Positions 6,078-52,325 of a DNA stretch of 64,000 bases are shown here, in pieces. Both the position numbers and the translations under genes were made by a program. The notes under the pieces were generated by a model. The model did not search any database and was not told where the DNA came from. It saw only the letters and a list, made by a program, of their open reading frames with translations. Within the stretch, counting starts at the first letter, position 1; each line of letters starts with the position of its first letter. This DNA is from Eledone cirrhosa (taxonomy: Eukaryota). The DNA lies in NCBI GenBank assembly GCA_964016885.1, contig OZ024741.1:367970001-368034000 (forward strand), read 5' to 3'.

Positions 6078-6268
6078 CAATACTTGTATATATATATATA
6101 CAATTATAATAGAATATAAAAGAAAAACGAACACAGATATATACATATATGTGTTCAAATTACAAGGGACCGGATTCGCTAAGGTGAAAAGAATACTAAC
6201 TATAGACAATACTCAATTTAAGAAAAAATCAAGAAAATAAATACAAACCGGAATTGTGGTAACTACCA

Positions 6269-6346
6269 ATCACCCAGACAACTTGGTGTTGTTTCGCAAT
6301 GTTAATTGTGAATAGAATTACCAATTCAAGCTCATCAGTGGGTGAT
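6269..6346 (-). ncRNA. Type I hammerhead ribozyme motif (complete core)
   Basis: Minus strand: stem I AUCACCCA/UGGGUGAU (8 bp), CUGAUGA, stem II closed by GC/GC, GAAA, stem III ACAAC-ACCAA-GUUGU, GUC cleavage triplet. Confidence 0.85.
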
Positions 6347-6652
6347 GAATTAGTATCCTAGACACTTCTATGTATATTAAGGAACTGAATAGTGTGCTAT
6401 ATATAATAGCGCACATGGTATCTTAGCGTGTCTCACAAACTTACACCACTAAAAATAGTAGCCAGGTTTATTTGACATTTGAATTAGCTCAACAAATTAA
6501 CGGAGCCGAATATATCAAAGGTATATATTGAGTTAGGAACTCAAAATAGTCTCATACAACAAAATAGCTCTAAGAAAAAGATATTTCCGAGCCGTATATT
6601 ATAACAGAATATAAAAGAAAAACGAACACAGATATATACATATATGTGTTCC

Positions 6653-6830
6653 CAGTATCGGTAGAGGGTCGGACGCCTTGCTTTGACGCATAGAGTTACG
6701 GCCCTTGCCATTCTGAGTTCAAATCCCTCCGAGGTTAACTTTGCCTTTCATCCTTACGAGGTCGATAAAATAAAGTACCAGTAATGCACTGGGATAATTG
6801 CTGGCCTTGTGTCAAAAATAGAAACAATTA
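6653..6830 (+). mobile_element. SINE family A copy (5' clipped)
   Basis: Near-identical to 2746-2935 and 50877-51060. Confidence 0.88.
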
Positions 6831-6930
6831 TTTTCCCGTTACATTTTGTCCGTTATTTTATTTCAGCCTCGCTTTCAATTGTTCTAGACTTTGTTTTGAA
6901 ATCCATATCTCACATCCATTTTAAATAAAT

Positions 6931-7002
6931 TTTCATTCTGACGAGCGAATCAGACGTCTGTGTCAGGCTCGTCTGTCTTCGTGAAACCTTTGCTAAATGA
7001 AA
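6931..7002 (+). ncRNA. Type I hammerhead motif, stem III damaged
   Basis: UUUCAUU / CUGACGA / GCGAA..UUCGU / GAAA CC UUU GC UA / AAUGAAA, with a C-C mismatch at 15.2-16.2. Confidence 0.65.
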
Positions 7003-7027
7003 TAATTATCTTATGTTGTTTATTATA

Positions 7028-7767: not shown

Positions 7768-7803
<36 letters not shown>

Positions 7804-8040
7804 GTATATATATAAGTAGAAGGGGTATTTAATTTGTTGTAAATCCGATAAATATAAATGTTTATAACTGATTTAGAGCACTCAACAGTTTCCTGGAGTA
7901 AATATTCAATGATATTTTTATTTATCTACTTATAACAGAAGAAAAATATTATATTTTAAACAACTAATAATCGTAAAATATCCTATTAATATAAATACAC
8001 ATATTATTAAGATATATATTTACATATATACATAGATAGA

Positions 8041-9240
8041 TTTCTTTATTTACCATAAAGGCATAAAAAGAAGGGACAAATACAAAGGGGGAGTTTACAT
8101 ATAATCGAGTAAAAAGGGTGTAACATGAAAATAATCGAAAATAACCTCAAAAGGGAGGGGACGTGATGGGGGTTGCACACACCCCCGAAAAAGTGTGCAA
8201 TCCTTTGCCCGGGGAGCACATGGAGAAGGTGCTCCCCTCTCCTTTACTTCTTTACCTACAGGATGGTATACAGAGAAGGCCCATTTACACGAGCCATTCT
8301 CGCCACTATCACCCACCTTTCATAAAACTGCCTGTGGCCAAGCACCTCTCTCTCCATTCTTATCCTTCTTCCGAAGTGATATCGGAAGAAGTAGACCAGA
8401 CTATGGCCAGAGAGGAAGTTGCCTGACCTCAGACCTTTCAATCGTGTCCACCAAACAACCTCTTTCAACATGGCTATTACGCACAGAAAAACCGCCTTTG
8501 CTTCCTTTGTGAAGAGGGGAGGCGGTTTGATTGTCATCACGGACTCGGCTGTCAATTTAATCGGCGCCACCCGCGACAGCAGTTGTTCGGCGTAGCCCCA
8601 CAGATCAGCCACGCCCGGACATTGCACCAATGCGTGCGCCACGGTTTCTTCGTGACGCACGCATCTAGGGCAAATCTTTTTTGAGGGATCCCTGCCCGGG
8701 CGCCCGTGTCTGTAGAGCCTCTCTCGAACGGGTAGAGCCCCTCGGTAGCACTGCCAGGCCAGTGACTTCTGGAAGTTGTCCATTGGTCCTGGGCCGAAAG
8801 TCCTACCGAACAGGCTGGCCAGTTCGTCTTCTTCCATGTCCAGCGACTCTCCAAGGGTGTCATCGCCCCTGCTAGCCACCAGCCCTCTATAGAATGATGA
8901 GGTGGATTCTCCACCGATGGCCCGGCCCGCTTGCCAGAGAGCCCTGAGCGCCTGAGCACACTCAGTGTGCCAGTCTCCCAGTTTTCCGGATCTTTGCTTG
9001 ACCCAGGACTGTAGCTCGGTGAGTGAGACGAGTCTCGGAAAGGCTCGTTTCACGAACGGAGCCCACACCGGTTGACCAGTGAGGAATACCTGTAGGTGCC
9101 GTAGCCTTAATGCGTGCCTACGCATCATCAACCACGGCATCCCCAGCCCTCCTTTCGAAGGTTGTTGGCAGCAGATGGATCTTCTCACCATAGGAGGACG
9201 CTTCTTCCAAAGAAATTGGAAGAGCATGCGTTCCATGGTG
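8041..9240 (-). mobile_element. 5'-truncated L1/Tx1-clade non-LTR retrotransposon (ORF2 C-terminus plus 3' UTR)
   Basis: ORF 8256-9296 contains the Tx1-type motifs FLW..K...V.RS.CCQ....GGLGMP, W...RGALPV..RL and the zinc knuckle CPRC....ETVAHALVQCP. It is GC/CpG-rich and ends in AATAAAGAAA next to a (TA/TCTA) tract. Confidence 0.9.
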
Positions 9241-9683
9241 GTATTGTTCGAATATATTTCCCTCAAATTAACGTTATATGAGTTTTTTTTATTCATCTTC
9301 GCTTTTTTCCTTCTCTCTCTCTCTCACTATTTTGTCCTTCTCTTCTCTCTTCTTTCTCTCAAAGTCGTTTAAATAAACGGTTGTTTTTCAATTATTTACA
9401 TATTCATTGGCATATTCACCCATGAGTTTGAAAAATCCCTAATACATTTCCACTATCCAGAGAATATCCAACTGATAAGGTATGATTTTCTTGGGTATGT
9501 CTCTATTTATAAAACAAACTTTGTATTTTATCTGAAGAAAGCGTACCAAAGTCTTTTGGTACCCTTGAAATATATATAATAAAATAAATATGGTTTTATA
9601 AATATAGTTTCCATTTATTTAATATCATTGTATATATATATATATGTCAATATATATATATATATGTCAATATATATATATAT

Positions 9684-10140
9684 ATATTGTTATACTTTGG
9701 GAGGGTCATGTTGCCAATAAGAAACACACGCACCAGTTGCTTTCATTTCAATTTATTATAATAAATTTATAAATTTCCGGTTGGTTGGTTGGTTCCACAA
9801 CCAGATGGTTGTTTATATATTGTCAAAGTTCTTTCGTCACACATTCTGTGACCTCTTCAGTGACTGGGGGTTCTTTTCTTTGTTTTTTGTACCTCTCCTT
9901 TGTTCTGTCCTATGCCATCTTGTTTTTGTCGTGTGACGAAAGAACTTTGACAATATATAAACAACCATCTGGTTGTGGAACCAACCAACCGGAAATTTAT
10001 AAATTTATTATAATAAATTGAAGTGAAAGCAACTGGTGCGTGTGTTTCTTATTGGCAACATGACCCTCCCAAAGTATAACAATATCGGTTTCAACACACG
10101 TTTTCAGATAAAGAATCTTGCTAAACAAATTCAGAAACGA
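9684..10140. repeat. Fold-back element: ~155-bp inverted arms (9684-9842 / 9931-10085) plus tail
   Basis: Arms are near-identical reverse complements; flanked by (TA)n on both sides. Confidence 0.92.
9822..9864 (-). ncRNA. Minimal hammerhead motif within a fold-back element
   Basis: GUCA / CUGAAGA G / GUCAC-AGAAUGU-GUGAC / GAAA G AA C UU / UGAC; 2-bp stem III and one extra purine after the core. Confidence 0.6.
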
Positions 10141-10165
10141 TATATATATATATATATATATATAT

Positions 10166-10352
10166 AGAAAAAGAGATGAAATCAAAAATGCAACTGGAGT
10201 CTTATTTTTTTTTTAAATATATATATTTATTTGGTTCCTAAAAAAATAAGACTCCAGTTGCATTTTCGATTTCATCTCTTTTTCTTTATACTTTCACTCG
10301 TGTAGGACACCTCGGTTATTTTTCATTTTGTAAAAAAAAACTCACTTTCTAA
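10166..10352. repeat. Fold-back element: ~45-bp arms (10166-10211 / 10240-10285) plus tail
   Basis: agaaaaagagatgaaatc.aaaatgcaactggagtcttattttttt and its reverse complement; (TA)n-flanked. Confidence 0.9.
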
Positions 10353-10369
10353 TATATATATATATATAT

Positions 10370-10704
10370 ATATTAAAATACAAATATTAATAAAATAGAT
10401 GTTCTTTTGATCAATTACATTTTATTATACATATTTCGGAGGTACAACAGTACATACTCATCAGACAAAATATATGATTAAATCTTAACCATTTAACATC
10501 TCAGGATATGTCATGTATCATTATATTTTGTCTGTTGTACCTCCGAAATATGTATAATAAAATGTAATTGATCAAAAGAACATCTATTTTAGTAATATTT
10601 GTATTTTAATATTAATAATTCTGGAAAATTATTTTTCCGTAAGAGTGCTTCCAATCTACTGTAAAACTCATTCTTTGATATACTCATTGAATCTTGTTTA
10701 ACTC

Positions 10705-10710
<6 letters not shown>
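10370..10710. repeat. Fold-back element: arms 10370-10478 / 10517-10611 plus tail
   Basis: Reverse-complement arms; the right arm lacks 14 nt of the ribozyme core; (TA)n-flanked. Confidence 0.9.
10416..10474 (-). ncRNA. Minimal hammerhead motif within a fold-back element
   Basis: UAUAUUUUGU / CUGAUGA G..GUAC UGUU GUAC..C / GAAA UAUGUA UA / AUAAAAUGUA. Confidence 0.65.
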
Positions 10711-10772
<62 letters not shown>

Positions 10773-10828
10773 GACGTAAAATAAGAAAATTTTAAAAATT
10801 AAAAATTAACTTACTTACTAAAATTTTC

Positions 10829-10910
10829 ACTCCAACTAATTAGTTTCTGTAAGGGAGTAAATAGAGTTACGTAATGTAACTACAGAGAATTCCTTACGTC
10901 ATCAGGGAGT
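10829..10910 (-). ncRNA. Type I hammerhead motif with long stem II and palindromic stem III
   Basis: ACUCC / CUGAUGA / c-GUAAGG...AGUUAC AUUAC GUAACU...CCUUAC-a / GAAA CUAAUUAG UU / GGAGU. Confidence 0.75.
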
Positions 10911-11123
10911 CTATTCTCAGCTAAGTTATATATATATGTGTGTGTGTATTAAAGAAGAGATATGTATCATAAGAAAGGAGGAGAGGGAAAAAAAGTGTGA
11001 TACAGTATACTAGACGCCAATAGCCGAAGCGAGGTGTGTTCACTGCTTAAGGGTGCAGTGTTAAATATTATAGAAAGGTTGATATTTAATGAAGATTAAG
11101 CGCAGAAGGTGAACAGAGCAAGT

Positions 11124-11373
11124 ATAAACAGAATAAATGGAGGAGAAAGTAATACGTTTAAAACCAAACTTTACATCTTGCACAGTGTTTCATCTATACA
11201 ATAACAAGTAACAGTTCACACACATATTTGTGCATGTACAATGTATATGTGTGCGTACATGCACAAATATATGTGGGAACTGTTACTCGTTATTGTATAG
11301 ATGAAATACTGTGTAAGATGTAAAGTTTGGTTTTAAACATAATTGCCTTCTCCTCCATTTATTATCTGTTTAT
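11124..11373. repeat. Fold-back element: ~116-bp arms, 15-nt spacer
   Basis: 11124-11239 versus 11255-11373 are reverse complements with scattered mismatches. Confidence 0.9.
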
Positions 11374-11440
11374 TTATATATATATATATACACACACGTG
11401 TAACTTTATATCACTTTGGAAAACTTATTGTCTAAATTTG

Positions 11441-11527
11441 AGCTAACTTCCTGAAGAGTCCGGTGCTCTAGGTGTCCAATGCTATCGGATATCTTAAAAT
11501 GCGGACGAAACCATGGTAGAGGTAACT
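11441..11527 (+). ncRNA. Type I hammerhead motif with palindromic stem III
   Basis: ACUUC / CUGAAGA / GUCCG..CGGAC / GAAA CCAUGG UA / GAGGU; GUA triplet. Confidence 0.75.
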
Positions 11528-11824
11528 AAATGTGTTCACTTTTCTCCTAGTTTATTTTACACCGAATTCTGTTTAATTGACTGTATATCTGGGCGATTCA
11601 TACAAGCTGTCGAAATACTCGATAAATATTCCGTTGCAACTGATGCGAAGGGCTGCTTTCAGTTATTTGTCGGAGATTTCTTCATAGAAGCCTTTATTCT
11701 TATAGCTTGGTCTAATCGATTTTTTATATGGTTAATTATGCTAATTGGGGGAGGAAATGGTATATATTTTATCTGGTGATTCTATAGACATGTTTTATGA
11801 TATATATATATATTTTAATAAATT

Positions 11825-11855
<31 letters not shown>

Positions 11856-12110
11856 ATATATATATACATATGTGTGTGTATATATATACATGTGTTTGTG
11901 TGTGTATATATACATATGTGTGTGTATATATATACATGTGTGTATATATATATATACATACATGTGCGTATATGTGTGTGTGTGTGTGTATATATATACA
12001 TGTGTGTGTATATATATACATGTGCGTATGTGTGTATATATATACATGTGCGTATGTGTGTGTGTATGTGTGTATATATATATATACATGTGTGTGTGTA
12101 TATATATACA

Positions 12111-12146
<36 letters not shown>

Positions 12147-12489
12147 CATATGTGTGTGTATATATATATATATACATGTGTGTGTATATATATATATATA
12201 TATATACATATGTGTGTGTATATATATATATATACATGTGTGTGTATATATATACATGCGCGCATATGTGTATGTGTGTATATCTAAATATATACATATG
12301 TGTGTGTATATATATACATACATGTGCGTATATGTGTGTGTGTCTATATATATACATGTGTGTGTATATATATATATACATACATGTGCATGTGTATCTG
12401 TATATATATATATATACATATGTGTGTGTGTGTGTATATATATATACATACATGTGCGTATATATGTGTGTGTGTATATGTGTATATAC

Positions 12490-12520
<31 letters not shown>

Positions 12521-12686
12521 CATACACATGTGTGTATATATATATATATATGTGTCTGCGTGTATACACACACATATGCATGCATGCTCCCGTAACTCCT
12601 GGGGCAATCGTAGGGGTGCTGTATTTACTTATGGCATTTCTAATGCATTTAAAAACCTAGTGGAGCCCATCTCCTCTGATACACTA

Positions 12687-12770
<84 letters not shown>
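11825..12770. repeat. Compound (TA)n-CA-(TG)n minisatellite followed by (CA)n
   Basis: Recurrent tatatatacatgtgtgtg units to ~12580; pure (CA)n at 12688-12770. Confidence 0.95.
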
Positions 12771-12773
<3 letters not shown>

Positions 12774-13789
12774 TTATATGTATATATTATATTATATAGT
12801 GATATCATCATCATAATCATCATTTAACATCCACTTTCCTTGCTAGCAAGCTTTGAATGGGTTTTCTCAGACTGAGTCCATACTGAAACATGGCTACTGA
12901 CCTCGAAAACAAGCTAGGTGTTTGCATTTTACTTTCAAATAGTTTCACATTCTACTAAGTGGATTTTATTGTGGCACCAACCCTAATGAGGTTATCATGT
13001 CTTTGACACATCTGAAGGTTCTTCCCAACCCTTTGTTTGGCTAGTACTTTACAACTTGATGTCCTTCCTCTCATCAACCACTTATATATAAGCTGGTCTT
13101 CCTGACTGTTTCTGCTACCATATTCACTCAGGAAACACTGGTTGGCCTGAGGGTATAGTAGTCACTAACCCATGTTGCCATACACTTTGATAGAACCTAA
13201 GACCTTGTACTTGCAAAGTGATCTTCTTAACCACACAAGTATTCTTATATATATATATGTGTGTGTGTGCTAATGTTTGGAGTTACAGTGTATGTTATCT
13301 CTGTTTTGTATGTGTGCATGTGTGTTACATATTCCCAGTACTAAAGAGGATAAGGAGTTTATCTGAAAGTGTAAGCAATATCTCTGTTACAAAATAACTG
13401 TTACAGTGTATATATGAGGAAGGGAAATGTCAAGATTTTAGACTTTATGTCGCTACGGTGAGATAGAAAAGTGTGATAGGTGTTGTTTTTGTTGTTTAGC
13501 CCCTGGTCAACTCTGGTTAAACACATCCATGATCAAATATATTCATTCATGACCATCATGTCTTATTGGTGTATATGACTATGTTATCTAATGCCTCCTT
13601 TCTTATATAAGGTAGTAAGGAAAAATAGTGAGTCTTGTTACTATGGAATTTTGCCTGTTTATCAGAGGGTTATCAGACAAGGACTAACATTTCAATAGCA
13701 GACACAGCTTTTATCTTAATAGCAACACAAGTGGGGAGTGATATATTTTAAACATTGACTCAACTAGTGTCAAATATATACATACATAT

Positions 13790-14200
13790 ATATTTGGTCT
13801 GAACATAATGGAATCAGATTCCCATTGTCACTGCCTCTGTCTCTCTCACTCTCGCCATCTCTCTTATAAAGAAATGGGGGCCCATGTTCTGGCCACCCTG
13901 CAGACAGAATAGAGAAGGCGTTTCCCCAGAGAATGGTGAGGGAGACACGTTGGAAGAGCCATTCCAGTTTGCGAGGCTCACACCTGCGGGTAGCCAACTC
14001 CATGCCGATGGTGGTGAGTAGGGAGATGGTCCTATGGCCAAGGACACCAGAAGTCTCTGCTGTTAAGGGCTCGACTGCAAACTTGTCAGAGAGTGAGTAA
14101 TATTTGGAAAGTTTGACCTCCTCAGCTCGAGTGCAGCAGGGAGGATCGGCAACCCGAGGATAAAGACATCCTCTCTCAGGGTTACCTGCACCTAGCAGAG
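13790..14200 (-). mobile_element. CRE-clade remnant, same family as 2450-3030
   Basis: RAEEVKLSKYYSLSDKFAVEPLTAETSGVLG...WLFQRVSLTILWGNAFSIL, plus the shared 3' UTR gcagtgacaatgggaat.tg.ttccatt.tgttc.gacc. Confidence 0.8.
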
Positions 14201-35710: not shown

Positions 35711-35788
35711 TAAGTGTATAAACAATTATATATATATATATATAAGTGTATAAACAATTATATATATATATATAATTGTTTATACACT

Positions 35789-37206
35789 AGCCCCCTACTA
35801 TTTATTATTGCCCTTCAGGATTTAACAGTGGAGTTCAAGACCGGCTGCCCATGGGAACTCCTATACGCAGATGATCTAACGCTCATAGCTGAATCAATGG
35901 CCGAACTAGAGAAGAAATTCCAAACATGGAAGCATGGCCTAGAATCAAAAGGCCTTAAAATTAACCTGGCTAAGACTAAAGTTCTAGTTTGTAAGAAAGA
36001 AAATAGGGCACAGGTCCCATCCGGGAAATGGCCATGCTCAGTGTGTAGGAAAGGCGTAGGTAGAAACTCCATTTTATGTCCCAAATGCAAAGTATGGGTG
36101 CATAAAAGATGTAGTGGGATCACAGGTAAGCTAACTAAGAACATAGATTTTACATGTGGCCGGTGCTCTGGTGCAATAAGTAGCAGCAAGTGCCCACAAA
36201 ATACTAGCTCTTTCAATTGCACAGAGGGTTCTATAGAAATAGTGGACAGCTTCCGTTACCTGGGTGACAAAATCAGCAGTGGGGGAGGGTGCTCTGAAAG
36301 TACAGTAGCTAGAGTCAGAACTGGATGGAAAAAGTTCAGAGAGCTTATACCTCTACTAGCCGCTAAAGGGTTCTCCCTAAAAATGAAAGGCAGGCTGTAT
36401 GATGCCTGCATACGAACAGCAATGTTGCATAGCAGTGAGACCTGGGCATTGTGTGCAGAGGATATACGCAGACTAGAGAGGAACGAAGCTTGCATGCTCC
36501 GCTGGATGTGTAATAGTAATATACGTGAACGGCAAAGCATTAACAAACTAAGGGAAAAATTAGAAATAAGAGGGATCAGATGTTGTTTACTCGAGAGAAG
36601 GCTATGTTGGTATGGTCACGTGATGCGCATGAAAGACGACAGCTGTATAAAAAAAGTGCAGGGCAATAAAAATAGACGGTAGCCACGGAGTAGGCAGACC
36701 CAGAAAAACCTGGAACGACTTGATAAATTCCAACCTCACACACTTACACCTCTCCAAGACAATGTCACTGGACCGAGATCTTTGGCGGTACTCAGTAATA
36801 GAGAAGACCCGCCTTACCTAAATACAAAGTAAAACCTACTACAGTCAGTAGGCACCTCTAACAAAATACACCCCCGTCCCACTACCCCCACCCCATCCAC
36901 ACCGCCCTTTTCAATTTAAAGTTATGTTGGTACCACAACATCCAGGCCGAAACAAATGAGGTCATGTAGGTGTCACGACAAAAAAACACAGTCCACGCTG
37001 TAATGTGGCCGTGTAGGTAACACGGTAAAAACCTCTCAGTTCCACACTGTAAATGTGGTTGGTGTTAGGAAGGGCATCCAGCCGTAGAAAACCCGCCAGA
37101 CAGTCCTATGCGAGCAAGACAACCACTCTTGCCTCAAGTGGGAAAACTCCCATTCAAACCCATGCAAGCGTGGAATACGGATGTTAAACGATGATGATGA
37201 TGATGA
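35789..37206 (+). mobile_element. 5'-truncated RTE-clade LINE with target-site duplication
   Basis: RT motifs SPLLFII, LLYADDL, GLKINLAKTKV and FRYLG are present. The C-terminal WYGHVMR..GRPRKTW follows a frameshift in the A-run near 36650. It has a (GAT)n tail and a 12-bp TSD TGTTTATACACT at 35777-35788 and 37207-37218. Confidence 0.93.
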
Positions 37207-42165: not shown

Positions 42166-42709
42166 AGCAGGATTTCTTTTCGACTTGACAAAAATGCCCA
42201 TGTTAGGGTGGTGGGGAGAATATAATATTGAAAATAATGAGAATAACGATAATAATATTAATTATGTTTTAATTAGGCATAAAGCCATAATTAGGACGGA
42301 GAGAGGGGGGAGAATGTCTCTGTGAGAGGTAAGCTGGAAAGTTTCTTTAAGCATCAATATCTTTTCTGAAAACCTTAGCTTCACAACAGACATGAAACAA
42401 TTCCCACGAGGAATCAAAAGCAGCAGCACCCTCACTCCACCCATATATGGTGGCAGTGGTGATGGCAGCAGGGACTGAAGTTGTTGTTGTTGTGATGGTG
42501 GTGGTTTCTTATTTTGGCAGAAAACCACAAATTCATATGAAAGAGTCAAGTTAATTGAATTGACTTCCAGTATATAAATATTTATTTTATTGACCCAGAA
42601 GAGATGAAAGGTGGAAGCAATACCAGTGGGAACTGAACTCAGAAATTTGGGATATGAGATTAAATTCAATGTAAGGCATCTAATTTGATGCCTTTTACTG
42701 CACCCTTTA

Positions 42710-43730
42710 ATAATTGTTTCTACTTTAGGCACAAGGCCAGCAATTACCCAGTGCATTACTGGTACTTTATTTTATCGACCCCGTAAGGATGAAAGGCAAA
42801 GTTAACCTCGGCGGGATTTGAACTCAGTCCGTAAAGGGACGTAACTATGCTGCAAAGCATGGCGTCCGACCCTCTACCGATACTGCCAATCCACCGCACC
42901 CTTTAATAATAATTGTTTCTACTTTAGGCACAAGGCCTGCAATTACCCAGTGCATTACTGGTACTTTATTTTATCGACCCCGTAAGGATGAAAGGCAAAG
43001 TCAACCTCGGCGGGATTTGAACTCAGTTCGTAAAGAGACGTAACTATGCTGGAAAGCATGGCGTCCGACCCTCCACCGATACTGCCAATCCACCGCCCTT
43101 TAATAATAATGATAATTATTTATACATTTGGCACAAGGTCAGCAATTTGAAGGGAAAGTCCCTTTCACCACAGTACTTGACTGATACTTTATTTTATTGA
43201 ACCAAGAAAACTGAAATACAATGTTGACTATGCTGGGATTTGAACTCAGAGCCAAAATAAATACTGCAAAGTATTTTGTCTAATACTAATAATGGTTTTT
43301 ACTTTTGGCACAAGGCCAGCAATTATCCCTGTGCATTACTGGTACTTTATTTTATTGGCCCCATAAGGATGAAAGGCAAAGTTAACCTCGGCGGGATTTG
43401 AACTCAAGACCATAAAGGGCCGTAACTCTATGTTGCGAAGCATAATGTCTGACTCTCTATCGATACTGCCAATCCAATACCATTAACACTAATGATAATA
43501 ATGGTTTCTAATTTAAGTACAAGGCCAGCAATTTGAGAGTTGAATGGAATGGCAATTATATCGACCTCTGTTCTTGATGAGTACTTTATTTTATTGAACC
43601 CCTGGAAGGATGAATGGCAAAGTTGATCTTGACACAATAATAATTTCTACATTTGGCACAAGGCTAGCAATTTGAAGGGAAGAGGAAAGTCGATTAAATC
43701 ACCCAGTATTTGACTGGTATTTCATCAACC
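42710..43730 (-). mobile_element. Head-to-tail cluster of SINE family A copies
   Basis: Young copies at ~42710-42898, 42910-43098 and 43293-43478, plus older variants at ~43120-43290 and 43500-43730. All are on the minus strand and separated by (AAT)n. Confidence 0.9.
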
Positions 43731-43994: not shown

Positions 43995-46900
43995 GCTGCA
44001 GCTCTGTATGTCAGCCAGTGTGTGTTGCTGTCTGTGTGCCAGTGTGTGTAGCTGTCTGTGTGCCAGTGTGTGTAGCTGTCTGTGGCAGTGTGTGTAGCTC
44101 TGTATGTGTGTGACAGTGTGTGTAGCTCTGTGTGTGACAGTGTGTGTAGCTCTGTGTGTGTGTGGCAGTGTGTGTAGCTCTGTATGTGTAGCTGTCTGTG
44201 TGTGTAGCTCTGTATGTGTAGCTGTCTGTGTGTGTGTGGAAGTGTGTGTAGCTCTGTATGTGTGTGGCAGTGTGTGTAGCTCTGTATGTGTGTGGCAGTG
44301 TGTGTAGCTCTGTATGTGTGTGGCAGTGTGTGTAGCTCTGTATGTGTGTGACAGTGTGTGTAGCTCTGTATGTGTGTGGCAGTGTGTGTAGCTCTGTATG
44401 TGTGTGATAGTGTGTGTAGCTCTGTGTGTGACAGTGTGTGTAGCTCTGTATGTGTGTGACAGTGTGTGTAGCTCTGTATGTGTGTGGCAGTGTGTGTAGC
44501 TCTGTATGTGTGTGACAGTGTGTGTAGCTCTGTATATGTGTGACAGTGTGTGTAGCTCTCTGTGTGACGGTGTGTGTAGCTCTGTATGTGTGTGACAGTA
44601 TGTGTAGCTCTGTATGTGTGACAGTGTGTGTAGCTCTGTATGTGTGACAGTGTGTGTAGCTCTGTGTGTGGAAGTGTGTGTAGCTCTGTATGTGTGTGGA
44701 AGTGTGTGTGACTCTGTATGTGTGACAGTGTGTGTAGCTCTGTATGTGGAAGTGTGTGTAGCTATGTATGTGTGACAGTGTGTGTAGCTCTGTATGTGTG
44801 ACAGTGTGTGTAGCTCTGTATGTGTGTGACAGTGTGTGTAGCTCTGTATGTGTGACAGTGTGTGTAGCTCTGTATGTGTGTGGCAGTGTGTGTGACAGTG
44901 TGTGTAGCTCTGTATGTGTGACAGTGTGTGTAGCTTTGTGTGTGACAGTGTGTGTAGCTCTGTATGTGGCAGTGTGTGTAGCTCTGTATGTGTGTGACAG
45001 TGTGTGTAGCTCTGTGTGTGACAGTGTCTGTTGCTCTGTGTGTGACTGTGTGTGGCAGTGTGTGTAGCTCTGTATGTGTGTGTAGCTCTGTATGTGTGTG
45101 ACAGTGTGTGACAGTGTCTGTAGCTCTGTGTGTGGCAGTGTGTGTAGCTCTGTATGTGTGTGACAGTGTGTGTAGCTCTCTGTGTGACAGTGTGTGTAGC
45201 TCTGTGTGTGACAGTGTGTGTAGCTCTGTATGTGGCAGTGTGTGTAGCTCTGTATGTGACAGTGTGTGTAGCTCTGTGTGTGGCAGTGTGTGTAGCTCTG
45301 TGTGTGACAGTGTGTGTAGCTGTATGTGGCAGTGTGTGTAGCTCTGTGTGTGTAGCTGTATGTGGCAGTGTGTGTAGCTCTATGTGTGACAGTGTGTGTA
45401 GCTCTGTGTGTGACAGTGTGTGTAGCTCTGTGTGTGTAGCTGTATGTGGCAGTGTGTGTAGCTCTATGTGTGACAGTGTGTGTAGCTCTGTATGTGTGTG
45501 ACAGTGTGTGTAGCTCTGTATGTGGCAGTGTGTGTAGCTCTGTTTTTGTGACAGTGTGTGTAGCTCTGTGTGTGACAGTGTGTGTAGCTCTGTATGTGGC
45601 AGTGTGTGCAGCTCTGTATGTGACAGTGTGTGTAGCTCTGTTTTTGTGACAGTGTGTGTAGCTCTGTGTGTGACAGTGTGTGTAGCTCTGTGTGTGACAC
45701 TGTGTGTAGCTCTGTGTGTGTGACAGTGTGTGTAGCTCTGTGTGTGTGACAGTGTGTGTAGCTCTGTGTGTGACAGTGTGTGTAGCTCTGTGTGTGACAG
45801 TGTGTGTAGCTCTGTATGTGTGACAGTGTGTGTAGCTCTGTATGTGGCAGTGTGTGTAGCTCTGTATGTGTGACTGTGTGTAGCTCTGTGTGTGGCAGTG
45901 TGTGTAGCTCTGTATATGTGTGACAGTGTGTGTAGCTCTCTGTGTGACGGTGTGTGTAGCGCTGTATGTGTGTGGCAGTGTGTGTAGCTCTCTGTGTGAC
46001 AGTGTGTGTAGCTTTGTGTGTGGCAGTGTGTGTAGCTCTGTAAGTGTGACAGTGTGTGTAGCTGTGTGTGTGGCAGTGTGTGTAGCTCTGTATGTGTGAC
46101 AGTGTGTGTAGCTCTGTGTGTGACAGTGTGTGTAGCTCTGTGTGTGGGAGTGTGTGTAGCTCTGTATGTGGCAGTGTGTGTGGCAGTGTGTGTAGCTCTG
46201 TATGTGTTGCAGTGTGTGTAGCTCTGTATGTGTGTGGCAGTGTGTGTAGCTCTGTATGTGTGGCAGTGTGTGTAGCTCTGTGTGTGACAGTGTGTGTAGT
46301 TCTGTATGTGTGACAGTGTATGTAGCTCTGTATGTGTGACAGTGTGTGTAGCTCTGTATGTGTGTGGCAGTGTGTGTAGCTCTGTATATGTGACAGTGTG
46401 TGTAGCTCTGTGTGTGACAGTGTGTGTAGCTCTGTGTGTGTGACAGTGTGTGTAGCTCTGTGTGTGGCAGTGCGTGTAGCTCTGTGTGTGACAGTGTGTG
46501 TAGCTCTGTATGTGTGACTGTGTGTGACAGTGTGTGTAGCTCTGTATGTGGGAGTGTGTGTAGCTCTGTATGTGTGTGACAGTGTGTGTAGCTCTGTGTG
46601 TGACAGTGTGTGTAGCTCTGTATGTGGCAGTGTGTGTAGCTCTGTATGTGTGACAGTGTGTGTAGCTCTGTGTGTGACAGTGTGTGTAGCTCTGTATGTG
46701 GCAGTGTGTGTAGCTCTGTATGTGTGTGACAGTGTGTGTAGCTCTGTATGTGGCAGTGTGTGTAGCTCTGTATGTGACAGTGTGTGTAGCTCTGTATGTG
46801 TGACAGTGTGTGTAGCTCTGTGTGTGACAGTGTGTGTAGCTCTCTGTGTGACAGTGTGTGTAGCTCTGTATGTGGCAGTGTGTGTAGCTCTGTATGTGTG

Positions 46901-49830
46901 ACAGTGTGTGTAGCTCTGTGTGTGACAGTGTGTGTAGCTCTCTGTGTGACAGTGTGTGTAGCTCTGTATGTGGCAGTGTGTGTAGCTCTGTGTGTGACTG
47001 TGTGTGTAGCTCTGTATGTGGCAGTGTGTGTAGCTCTGTATGTGGCAGTGTGTGACAGTGTGTGTAGCTCTGTATGTGTGACAGTGTGTGTAGCTCTGTA
47101 TGTGTGTGGCAGTGTGTGTAGCTCTGTATGTGTGTGACAGTGTGTGTAGCTCTGTATGTGACTGTGTGTGTAGCTCTGTATGTGGCAGTGTGTGTAGCTC
47201 TGTGTGTGGCAGTGTGTGTAGCTCTGTATGTGTGTGGTAGTGTGTGTAGCTCTGTATGTGTGACAGTGTGTGTAGCTCTGTGTGTGACAGTGTGTGTAGC
47301 TCTGTATGTGTGTGGTAGTGTGTGTAGCTCTGTATGTGTGACAGTGTGTGTAGCTCTGTATGTGTGACAGTGTGTGTAGCTCTGTATGTATGGCAGTGTG
47401 TGTAGCTCTGTATGTGTGTGGTAGTGTGTGTAGCTCTGTATGTGTGACAGTGTGTGTAGCTCTGTATGTGTGACAGTGTGTGTAGCTCTGTATGTGGCAG
47501 TGTGTGTAGCTCTGTGTGTGGCAGTGTGTGTAGCTCTGTATGTGTGTGGTAGTGTGTGTAGCTCTGTATGTGTGACAGTGTGTGTAGCTCTGTATGTGTG
47601 ACAGTGTGTGTAGCTCTGTATGTATGGCAGTGTGTGTAGCTCTGTATGTGTGACAGTGTGTGTAGCTCTGTATGTGTGACAGTGTGTGTAGCTCTGTATG
47701 TGTGGCAGTGTGTGTAGCTCTGTATGTGTGACAGTGTGTGTAGCTCTGTGTGTGTGTAGCTCTGTGTGGGACAGTGTGTGTAGCTCTGTATATGTGTGAC
47801 AGTGTGTGTAGCTCTGTATGTGGCAGTGTGTGTAGTTCTGTATGTGACAGTGTGTGTAGCTCTGTGTGTGACAGTGTGTGTAGCTCTGTGTGTGACAGTG
47901 TGTGTAGCTCTGTGTGTGACTGTGTGTGGCAGTGTGTGTAGCTCTGTATGTGTGTGACAGTGTGTGTAGCTCTCTGTGTGACAGTGTGTGTAGCTCTGTG
48001 TGTGACAGTGTGTAGCTCTGTATGTGGCAGTGTGTGTGACAGTGTGTGTAGCTCTGTATGTGACAGTGTGTGTAGCTCTGTATGTGTGACAGTGTGTGAC
48101 AGTGTGTGTAGCTGTGTGTGTGGCAGTGTGTGTAGCTCTGTGTGTGACAGTGTGTGTAGCTGTATGTGGCAGTGTGTGTAGCTCTGTATATGTGTGACAG
48201 TGTGTGTAGCTCTCTGTGTGACGGTGTGTGTAGCTCTGTATGTGTGTGACAGTGTGTGTAGCTCTCTGTGTGACAGTGTGTGTAGCTCTGTGTGTGACAG
48301 TGTGTGTAGCTCTGTGTGTGACAGTGTGTGTAGCTTTGTGTGTAGCTCTGTATGTGTGGCTGTGTGTGTGGCAGTGTGTGTAGCTCTGTATGTGTGACAG
48401 TGTGTGTAGCTCTGTGTGTGACAGTGTGTGTAGCTCTGTGTGTGACAGTGTGTGTAGCTCTGTGTGTGGGAGTGTGTGTAGCTCTGTATGTGTGACTGTG
48501 TGTGTAGCTCTGTATGTGGCAGTGTGTGTAGCTCTGTGTGTGGCAGTGTGTGTAGCTCTGTATGTGTGGCAGTGTGTGTAGCTCTGTGTGTGACTGTGTG
48601 TAGCTCTGTATGTGGCAGTGTGTGTAGCTCTGTGTGTGGCAGTGTGTGTAGCTCTGTATGTGTGGCAGTGTGTGTAGCTCTGTGTGTGACTGTGTGTAGC
48701 TCTGTATGTGGCAGTGTGTGTAGCTCTGTATGTGTGTGGCAGTGTATGTAGCTCTGTATATGTGACAGTGTTTGTAGCTCTGTGTGTGTGACAGTGTGTG
48801 TAGCTCTGTGTGTGGCAGTGTGTGTAGCTCTGTATGTGTGTGGCAGTGTGTGTAGCTCTGTATGTGTGACAGTGTGTGTAGCTCTGTGTGTGGCAGTGTG
48901 TGTAGCTCTGTATGTGTGGCAGTGTGTGTAGCTCTGTATGTGTGTGGCAGTGTGTGTAGCTCTGTATGTGTGGTAGTGTGTGTAGCTCTATGTGTGACAG
49001 TGTGTGTAGCTCTGTATGTGTGACAGTGTATGTACCTCTGTATGTGTGACAGTGTGTGTAGCTCTGTATGTGTGTGGCAGTGTGTGTAGCTCTGTATATG
49101 TGACAGTGTGTGTAGCTCTGTGTGTGACAGTGTGTGTAGCTCTGTGTGTAGCTCTGTGTGTGACAGTGTGTTTTGCTCTGTATGTGTGACTGTGTGTAGC
49201 TCTGTGTGTGACAGTGTGTGTAGCTCTGTATGTGGCAGTGTGTGTAGCTCTGTATGTGTGTGGCAGTGTGTGTAGCTCTGTATGTGGCAGTGTGTGTAGC
49301 TCTGTGTGTGGCAGTGTGTGTAGCTCTGTGTGTGTGGCAGTGTGTGTAGCTCTGTATGTGTGTGGCAGTGTGTGTAGCTTTGTATGTGTGACAGTGTGTG
49401 TAGCTCTGTATGTGTGACAGTGTGTGTGGCTCTGTATGTGTGTGTCAGTGTGTGTAGCTCTGTATGTGTGTGTCAGTGTGTGTAGCTCTGTATGTGTGTG
49501 GCAGTGTGTGTAGCTCTGTATGTCTGTGGCAGTGTGTGTAGCTCTGTATGTGTGTGGCAGTGTGTGTAGCTCTGTGTGTGACAGTGTGTGTAGCTCTGTA
49601 TGTGGCAGTGTGTGTAGCTCTGTATGTGACAGTGTGTGTAGCTCTGTATGTCTGTGGCAGTGTGTGTAGCTCTGTATGTGTGTGGCAGTGTGTGTAGCTC
49701 TGTGTGTTTGTGGCAGTGTGTGTAGCTCTGTGTGTGGCTGTATGTGGCAGTGTATGTAGCTCTGTGTGTGACAGTGTGTGTAGCTCTGTGTGTGTGGTAG
49801 TGTGTGACAGTGTGTGTAGCTCTGTATGTA
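43995..49830. repeat. ~5.8 kb TG-rich satellite with a ~22-28-bp unit
   Basis: Unit G(A/G)CAGTGTGTGTAGCTCTGT(A/G)(TG)n repeated roughly 200+ times. Confidence 0.98.
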
Positions 49831-51328: not shown

Positions 51329-52325
51329 ACCACAGGGATCTGTTCTTGGCCCCCTTTTGTTTGTGGCATATATTAATGACATAGATGCCAACTTAAAGAA
51401 TGCCACAGTACTGAAATGCAGATGTACCTTGAGATAAAAAGGACAGATCCTGAACACTATAGATCTTGCCTGCAATCTGACCTGGACACAATGCAACAAT
51501 GGATCTCAGACTGGCAACTCAAGCTAGCTGTGGACAAGTGTACCACCATGCATTTTGGGAGTAAAAACCCAGCGTCCACATACTCCCTCCACAACACTAA
51601 TATCAAGAAGTCTTCTTGTGAACGTCACCTGGGCATTATGGTCAGCAGCAATTTGCATTGGACGAAGCACGTCTCTAAAATTGTCAAGAAGGCCGAGGGT
51701 ATCTTAGCATCACTCAGCAAGACCTTTGTCAGCCGCTCTCCAGCTATCTATTTAAAGCTGAATATAGCTATCATGCAGCCACACTTAGAATTTGCAACAC
51801 CAGTCTGGAACCCCTATCTTGCTCAGAACATTGACCACCTGGAAACTGTTCAGAGATGTGCAACCAAGCGAATACCCTCCATCAGGCATCTACCATACTC
51901 TGAACGCCTTGCTTCCCTGGGCATGGATACATTGAAGCTCCGACGTCTGGTAAACACCCACAAAATTATTGGCCATCTTGCCAACAACAACCCTGAGTAC
52001 CTTTTTGATATCCATGTGTCTAACACACGTGGACATGCCCACAAAGTCAGAAAACAGCACAGCTCCCATGACTTTCGGAAACATTTTTCACGCTCAGAGT
52101 TGCTGAAGCATGGAACAAACTACCTGCATCAGTTGTTAGCTGTCGAGACACTGCATCCTTTAAAACCTCCATGCTTCCTGAGATTCAACACTACACCTAA
52201 TATTCCCCCTCCATACACATACATACATGTATATCATGACTCATACACTATTCACTTCCCTGGCATTTGTATATTATTTTATGTACTATACATGCACCTT
52301 TGACAAGTTGTAGTGCGCCTGAGCA
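51329..52325 (+). mobile_element. CR1-clade LINE 3' fragment (degenerate RT plus 3' UTR)
   Basis: Motifs PQGSVLGPLLF..YIND, LQSDLD...W...WQL, LE.VQR.ATK.IP, YSERL..L, TRGH..K and WNKLP, with frameshifts. The same 3' UTR recurs at about 62690-62795. Confidence 0.9.

Follow-up and report, generated by a model that had tools for sequence, protein, structure and literature searches.

Truncated ends of Penelope-like elements probably stacked between TA repeats in Eledone cirrhosa

The 64,000 nucleotides of Eledone cirrhosa DNA analysed here (the window, on contig OZ024741.1 of a 3.0-Gb genome) contain a pile of repeat modules, named M0 to M6 from left to right, which is very probably a stack of seven truncated 3' ends (pseudo-long terminal repeats, or pLTRs) of dispersed families of Penelope-like elements (PLEs) lying between TA repeats. 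Each module is the 5'-truncated 3' end of one family, and the end-to-end pile is likely to have arisen because each of these families inserts into TA repeats. The observations behind this explanation are the positions at which family members end, the dispersal of the families, frames for a reverse transcriptase (RT) and a GIY-YIG endonuclease (EN) upstream of four of them, hammerhead ribozyme motifs, and a rule by which a long and a short end are paired in one insertion. A first-pass annotation, made from the sequence alone, had described six dissimilar, non-coding, ribozyme-bearing modules between (TA)-rich tracts at 9630-11830. The six modules are present at about the coordinates it gave, and a seventh, M0, lies directly to the left of that range, at 7815-9630. 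The term “non-coding” has to be withdrawn for M0, M1, M2 and M5, since the sequences support their identification as truncated ends of PLEs with RT and GIY-YIG domains.

Families, coding partners and module layout

All seven families are multi-copy. The genome search, which the first-pass annotation had proposed as its check, returned between 580 and 2,411 candidates per module, all of these counts being lower bounds (M0 2,128, M1 2,058, M2 1,405, M3 1,856, M4 1,478, M5 580, M6 2,411). The dispersed copies have 80-99% identity, and a random sample of 60 stretches of 10 kb (loci L231-L290, 600 kb) contains 26 insertions of the seven families and their relatives. Copies stop at precise positions and are followed there by (TA)n. 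At least four TA units lie within 26 nt in 150 of the 196 copies that include a 3' end, compared with a background of 3.9% in the window and 13% in the loci. Of the 46 copies that lack such a run, 33 continue into the family's own sequence. With a threshold of at least three units within 6 nt, (TA)n is found at 398 of 467 terminal ends, so that the enrichment in the flanks of other copies, also put forward as a check, is borne out. The identity of the best other copy is 92% for M5, 94% for M3, 97-99% for M0, M1, M4 and M6, and 100% for M2. Because this value differs by module, the stack is likely to have accumulated over time, and sequence divergence supports the reading of the modules as probable successive insertions of different age.

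The frame upstream of M1 (P0001) is open over 820 amino acids (aa) and combines RT motifs and a Cx4CxxC linker with a GIY-YIG domain carrying CCHH; its RT matches RVT_1 at 8.7e-04, and its EN is recognised by motif only. Parts of this frame are seen in at least nine further loci. Its EN layout resembles, by eye, the Nematis rows in Fig. S2 of PMC8557442 (Craig et al. 2021), and the partner is accordingly called Nematis-like; the homologues of its protein are mostly unnamed, and Octopus vulgaris supplies the best named homologue of an element protein (67%). Upstream of M2 is an 842-aa open frame in locus L426 (Pfam RVT_1 1.2e-06, GIY-YIG 4.1e-06), with fragments in L427-L429; its DKG, its CCHH and its Cx2-5CxxC linker with a long spacer are those of the Neptune type, again by eye against the Fig. 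S2 rows. M0 and M5 follow frames with a CxCx5C linker and without CCHH, whose C-terminal parts were identified by motif and tblastn. The linker, the lack of CCHH and the insertion into (TA)n all point to Hydra-type partners, and many further Hydra-type frames are present in this genome. M4 and M6 belong to families of tandem monomers, of 540 bp and about 680 bp respectively, whose copies include dimers and trimers with no PLE frame upstream. Taken with the head-to-head architecture and the hammerhead motifs, the frames upstream of four families uphold the PLE origin that the first-pass annotation had suggested. Two intact PLE frames, at L426:2350-4875 (+, 842 aa) and L221:3802-6261 (-, 820 aa), are candidates for active elements.

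The stack is laid out as follows:

7815-7916 (-): inverted arm of M0, ending at the family's long end beside the (TA)n tract at 7771-7814
7903-8038 (+): upstream piece of the M0 direct arm, aligning to copies in L187 and L206 just upstream of the piece that starts at 9243
8039-9242 (-): 5'-truncated fragment of a long interspersed nuclear element (LINE), nested in the M0 insertion; open frame at 8256-9323 (zf-RVT 1e-06)
9243-9630 (+): M0 direct arm to the short end, a putative Hydra-type PLE 3' end
9524-9586 (+): M0 type I hammerhead motif, stem III self-complementary
9631-9687: (TA)n tract with two GTCAA interruptions, common to the ends of M0 and M1
9684-10139: M1, two pLTRs of a Nematis-like PLE joined head to head; arm with the short end 9935-9684 (-), arm with the long end 9931-10139 (+), tail of about 56 nt
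9817-9864 (-): M1 minimal type I hammerhead motif
10140-10166: (TA)13 tract
10166-10351: M2, two pLTRs of a Neptune-type PLE joined head to head, with a tail of about 65 nt; the truncation lies downstream of the hammerhead of this family
10352-10373: (TA)n tract
10370-10708: M3, head-to-head pair, tail of about 100 nt; hammerhead related to that of M0; no open reading frame (ORF) found
10418-10472 (-): M3 type I hammerhead motif, whose stem II is mutated in the window copy
10709-10768: (TA)30 tract
10769-10927 (-): M4, single 5'-truncated copy of the 540-bp tandem monomer family without ORF
10829-10910 (-): M4 type I hammerhead motif, palindromic stem III
10927-10950: compound (TA)/(TG) tract
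10951-11373: M5, head-to-head pair, putative Hydra-type PLE end, tail of about 174 nt; of the hammerhead just one half (GAAA-stem III-UH) is present, at 11191 (-) and 11303 (+)
11374-11409: compound (TA)/(CA) tract and junction
11410-11799 (+): M6, single 5'-truncated copy of the tandem monomer family of about 680 bp without ORF; the monomer contains its own (TA)n run
11446-11523 (+): M6 type I hammerhead motif, palindromic stem III
11800-12551: long compound (TA)/(TG)/(CA) array, the right edge of the stack

Two of the six tracts that delimit the modules are compound (TA/TG and TA/CA). The mutual dissimilarity of the modules holds in so far as pairwise alignment of the window copies of M0-M6, with low-complexity sequence masked, gave no pair at E<0.01, and it fails for M3, whose hammerhead family is also that of M0. 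The LINE fragment nested in M0, which is L1/Tx1-like by its motif, has a few relatives of 83-85% identity in the fetched loci.

A type I hammerhead motif is found in all seven families and in five window modules (M0, M1, M3, M4 and M6), the window copies of M2 and M5 being truncated within or past it. The four cores previously noted are confirmed in M1 (-), M3 (-), M4 (-) and M6 (+), where CTGANGA...GAAA...UH is accompanied by a closing stem I. A strict type I scan accepts M4, M6 and the M0 motif at 9524-9586, and rejects M1, which has a 2-bp stem III, and the window copy of M3, which has a mutated stem II; among 1,000 dinucleotide shuffles of 9630-11830, 2 gave one strict hit and none gave two. 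Rfam at E<=1 over 8000-14000 returned no hammerhead among 118 matches, only miRNA-like hairpin noise. Family-wide, each position of the cores is 88-100% conserved apart from the free position 7, which varies; H17 is A, C or U, and stem III is self-complementary. The core of the M2 family is UUGAAAA, in which a U3-A8 pair replaces C3-G8 in 35 of 41 copies (L058, L291-L315), and helix II extensions measure 51 nt in M4, 49 nt in M6 and about 87 nt in M5. Among 14 representatives of the M0/M3 group, five of the six inner pairs of stem II change on both sides, with 26 cells changed on both sides compared to 10.1 in shuffles (0/500), a covariation signal that relatedness can inflate. Minimum-free-energy folds of the monomers do not give the hammerhead junction, as is expected for a short helix III.

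Similar motifs occur to the left of the stack. The repeat at 6107-6640, whose termini are duplicated in direct orientation, contains a type I hammerhead-like motif at about 6270-6350 (-) and is interrupted by an element near 6650-6810 that resembles a short interspersed nuclear element (SINE). A hammerhead-like module at 6812-7023, with its motif at about 6930-7000 (+), ends at (TA)n at 7024, and further loci show the same end (end family 48).

Long and short ends of the fold-backs

The four long inverted repeats with one extended arm that had been noted in the stack are located as follows:

9684-9842 / 9931-10085: M1 inverted arms, 154 identities, 1 mismatch, 4 gaps
10161-10211 / 10240-10290: M2 inverted arms, 49 identities, 2 mismatches, 0 gaps
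10370-10454 / 10529-10612: M3 inverted arms, 83 identities, 1 mismatch, 1 gap
11124-11239 / 11255-11373: M5 inverted arms, 108 identities, 8 mismatches, 3 gaps

These fold-backs are the head-to-head inverted pLTRs with a tail that are known from PLEs. Copies of every family stop at one or the other of two ends, which are separated by 56-174 nt, and a long end is paired with a short one in 97 of the 99 head-to-head insertions in which both ends lie at (TA)n; the pairing holds in 46 of 46 among the loci that were not chosen by a query containing both ends. At 60 loci selected solely by the M4 long end, all 37 typed partners are short, 21 ends are without a partner and 2 are interrupted. The pLTRs occur in direct (partial tandem) as well as inverted orientation, with variable 5' truncation. 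The pairing rule fits the presence of two internal RT start sites such as those reported by Frangieh et al. (2024, PMC11167929). In copies that read through, 3-7 alternating A/T nucleotides are found directly at all 8 examinable ends (the short end of each of the 7 families and the long end of M4), suggesting that primer and template pair when the target is (TA)n. The M3 family (L316-L340) includes many palindromic copies that share one centre, which suggests a hairpin master element.

The mechanism proposed for the stack is that the elements inserted successively into one (TA)n, each insertion likely splitting the tract and leaving a target on both sides. The element-encoded GIY-YIG domain would nick both strands of the tract, and each 3'-OH would serve as primer for the RT, which would start at either of two fixed positions within the RNA. 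These positions would lie 56-174 nt from each other, and a short AUAU-type stretch at each of them could pair with the primer. The two cDNAs would then converge, stop after 50-400 nt and be joined head to head into an inverted repeat, one arm of which carries a tail; a product from one strand only would give a single 5'-truncated copy of the kind seen in M4 and M6. M3, M4 and M6 would likely be mobilised in trans. The hammerheads may be passengers of the pLTR, where they would likely process tandem or read-through transcripts as dimers.

A number of observations weigh against this explanation and must be set beside those that favour it. The evidence base is assembled genomic DNA only, and target-site duplications are not discernible inside a microsatellite. 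A (TA)n tract is present at the apparent 5' junction in only 14 of 52 single-orientation copies, although many of these junctions are probe limits rather than true ends, a confounding that affects the count of pre-existing tracts for M0. A looser tally of end pairs, which includes ends without (TA)n, contains 10 exceptions among the 112 pairs outside M4, of which 7 are short-short and 3 long-long. The ATAT microhomology was counted without a null model in elements that are AT-rich, and in the one PLE tested in vitro initiation is not homologous to the cut DNA (PMC11167929). As regards the coding partners, the link of M5 to an ORF comes from one decayed locus (L348/L430), and the proposed search for linked RT and GIY-YIG frames, successful for M0, M1, M2 and M5, gave none for M3, M4 and M6 when their loci were examined by alignment of the upstream sequence and by tblastn over 1.5 kb, a result compatible with the existence of partners; the PLE status of these three modules consequently rests on their architecture.

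The tail and the inversion could instead result from EN resolution of a single-primed intermediate or from fold-back of the cDNA, with the target preference unchanged, and this alternative must be regarded as possible, if rather unlikely. The published attribution of the tail to EN-mediated resolution (PMC8557442) and the self-priming proposed for palindromic junctions (Arkhipova et al. 2013, PMC3846280) speak for it, as do the M3 copies, many of which have a fixed palindrome centre, and in 26 of 29 of whose insertions the two arms resemble each other more closely than they do the mean other copy. It is opposed by the window copy of M1, in which the loop belongs to the short-ended arm, so that the tail cannot have been copied from it; by the two arms of single insertions, whose mutual similarity matches that to the best other copy in only 7 of 19 cases for M1, 2 of 8 for M2 and 1 of 7 for M4; and by the mapping of both ends to RT start sites in PMC11167929.

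The stack in the genome and a possible growth of TA repeats

The first-pass annotation had also proposed that the locus is a landing pad in which each insertion attracts the next. The random sample contains 1,569 (TA)n runs of at least five units, or about one tract per 400 bp, and recurrent repeat ends are found at 449 of 1,664 random (TA)n flanks (at least 27%). These ends fall into at least 180 families, 50 of which have hammerheads in a quarter or more of their members. The strict scan detects 45 type I hammerheads in the 600 kb, a few of them in local duplications, compared with 0-2 in five local shuffles, which extrapolates to about 225,000 motifs genome-wide. Chains of at least six short segments with recurrent ends occur 8 times in the same DNA, while the window stack scores 9 segments, internal TA runs inflating all chain counts. 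Since similar chains recur in random DNA, the stack is not special and the notion of a privileged locus is not sustained; the locus is better seen as a sample of the genome-wide state of (TA)n flanks and hammerheads.

Copies of the seven families have a member of another of these families next to them across a microsatellite in 19 of 243 cases, which is a 7-fold excess over a uniform null (about 1%) and equals the roughly 8% expected from independent choice among 535 tracts. Shared targeting therefore suffices, and attraction is possible and unproven. When all families are considered, the rate of chain continuation (0.48-0.68, with a base rate of about 0.30) exceeds independence, and this excess fits either the splitting of tracts or the presence of unequal tracts.

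The same excess is one of the points in favour of a self-reinforcing pad, in which an insertion lengthens or creates (TA)n by telomerase-like slippage of the RT on the AUAU site and so draws the next; this is an unlikely account. The (TA) runs beside recurrent ends are longer (a median of 6 units compared to 4, n=449 and 1,215, p 2e-18), although longer tracts are also larger targets, and the adjacency of the seven families is no higher than the per-tract expectation. A second line of support comes from M4 long ends with an internal TCTCTAT, which carry (TC)5-42 at the junction in 17 of 27 terminal ends (243 exact matches genome-wide); the length of (TC)n at these ends is unrelated to divergence (rho 0.11, p 0.58, n=26), and the TCTTTAT subfamily of M4 has no (TC) expansion. 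Expansion of TC before (TA)n is, however, general in random DNA, where runs of 2, 3 and 4 units number 0, 0 and 1 and runs of at least 5 number 19, in diverse contexts. With short runs depleted and long ones common, general slippage at the level of the DNA is more likely than RT slippage, which has been rejected as the cause of (TC)n at M4 long ends. The polarity of these compound microsatellites in the random sample is an observation in its own right: (TC)n expands before (TA)n, and there are 0 runs of at least five units of (GA)n in that position. A broader proposal, that PLE RTs prime like telomerase at AUAU and slip, that several clades thereby build much of the (TA)n load with each insertion making the next target, and that the long and short ends represent two primings on one RNA by an RT dimer, is more doubtful still and is offered as speculation.

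Two further explanations are highly improbable. The inverted arms bordered by TA dinucleotides recall miniature inverted-repeat transposable elements (MITEs) or fold-back DNA transposons with TA duplication and terminal inverted repeats, but the arms are unequal where such elements have fixed and equal ones, inversion points differ among copies, hammerheads are conserved, and copies extend upstream into RT frames, which refutes the assignment for M1, M2 and M5. Chimeric or hairpin reads could have produced an assembly artefact, palindromes and microsatellites being error-prone, but the arms differ by mismatches and gaps and 99 analogous insertions with different junctions are found elsewhere; a public sequencing run contains 0.58 of the sampled words of the stretch, and may be the source data and so not independent.

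The rest of the window contains a 5.8-kb GT-rich minisatellite array of period 24/52 (44000-49830), fragments of two other LINE-type RT frames (35714-36682 and 51380-52303, both +), and a tandem dimer of a 199-bp SINE-like repeat (42708-43110).

Significance and comparison with known systems

The architecture, the (TA)n bias and the hammerheads are already in print, and the stack consists of elements of a known class at high density rather than of a new system. What is notable is the scale, in number of hammerheads, the use of one target by three clades, and the ATAT microhomology at the ends. The literature covered, without most subscription papers, Repbase reports and the supplements of the retrozyme preprint, gave no account of multi-clade PLE stacks in (TA)n or of repeat addition by a PLE RT; the main text of a 2026 octopus repeat annotation contains 0 mentions of hammerheads or ribozymes. 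Annotations of cephalopod genomes probably list short PLE ends under SINEs, MITEs or unknown repeats. The tandem and inverted structures of PLEs and their microsatellite bias are named as an open question in PMC8557442, and the long-and-short rule, the A/T microhomology and the two intact frames of 820-842 aa make the question of PLE integration testable with these families.

The closest comparison is with the EN-containing PLEs, for which a pLTR, an inverted 5'-truncated copy and a tail have been described (PMC8557442; PMC3846280). The features in common are head-to-head pLTRs, a tail at one end, partial tandems, a single frame of RT and C-terminal GIY-YIG, a hammerhead in the pLTR and a microsatellite bias. 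The present families differ in their tails, which measure 56-174 nt where 30-40 bp have been described, in the stacking of several clades in one tract, and in the quantified rule of long and short ends. A preference for (TA)n has been reported for octopus Hydra and Naiad families (PMC8557442). The Hydra clade, including Hydra-1_Obim of Octopus bimaculoides (PMC8557442 S1/S2), agrees with the M0 and M5 partners in its CxCx5C linker, lack of CCHH, (TA)n insertion and type I hammerhead near the 3' end, while the motif listed for Hydra-1_oBim differs in sequence, by eye, from the M0 and M5 hammerheads.

The Anolis Poseidon element PAc has been studied in vitro, where two internal RT start sites bound the tail and both strands are extended (PMC11167929). 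An AT-rich target is common to PAc and the present families, for which two start sites delimiting the tail and the cutting and extension of both strands are proposed as well; PAc differs in that its start site is not homologous to the cut DNA, whereas the ends described here lie at short alternating A/T that matches the target.

The minimal hammerheads of PLEs (Cervera and De la Pena 2014, PMC4209133) likewise have a short or palindromic helix III suited to dimers, a bulged base at the start of helix II and a massive copy number, and are without the long helix II extensions seen here in M4, M6 and M5 and the U3-A8 core of the M2 family. Animal non-LTR retrozymes (PMC7229834; bioRxiv 10.64898/2026.07.22.740005) differ in that the 540 bp of M4 and the approximately 680 bp of M6 exceed the 150-450 bp described, and in that these two families have PLE-type inversions with long and short ends; they resemble M4 and M6 in being non-coding tandem monomers, each with one type I hammerhead and likely mobilised by PLEs.

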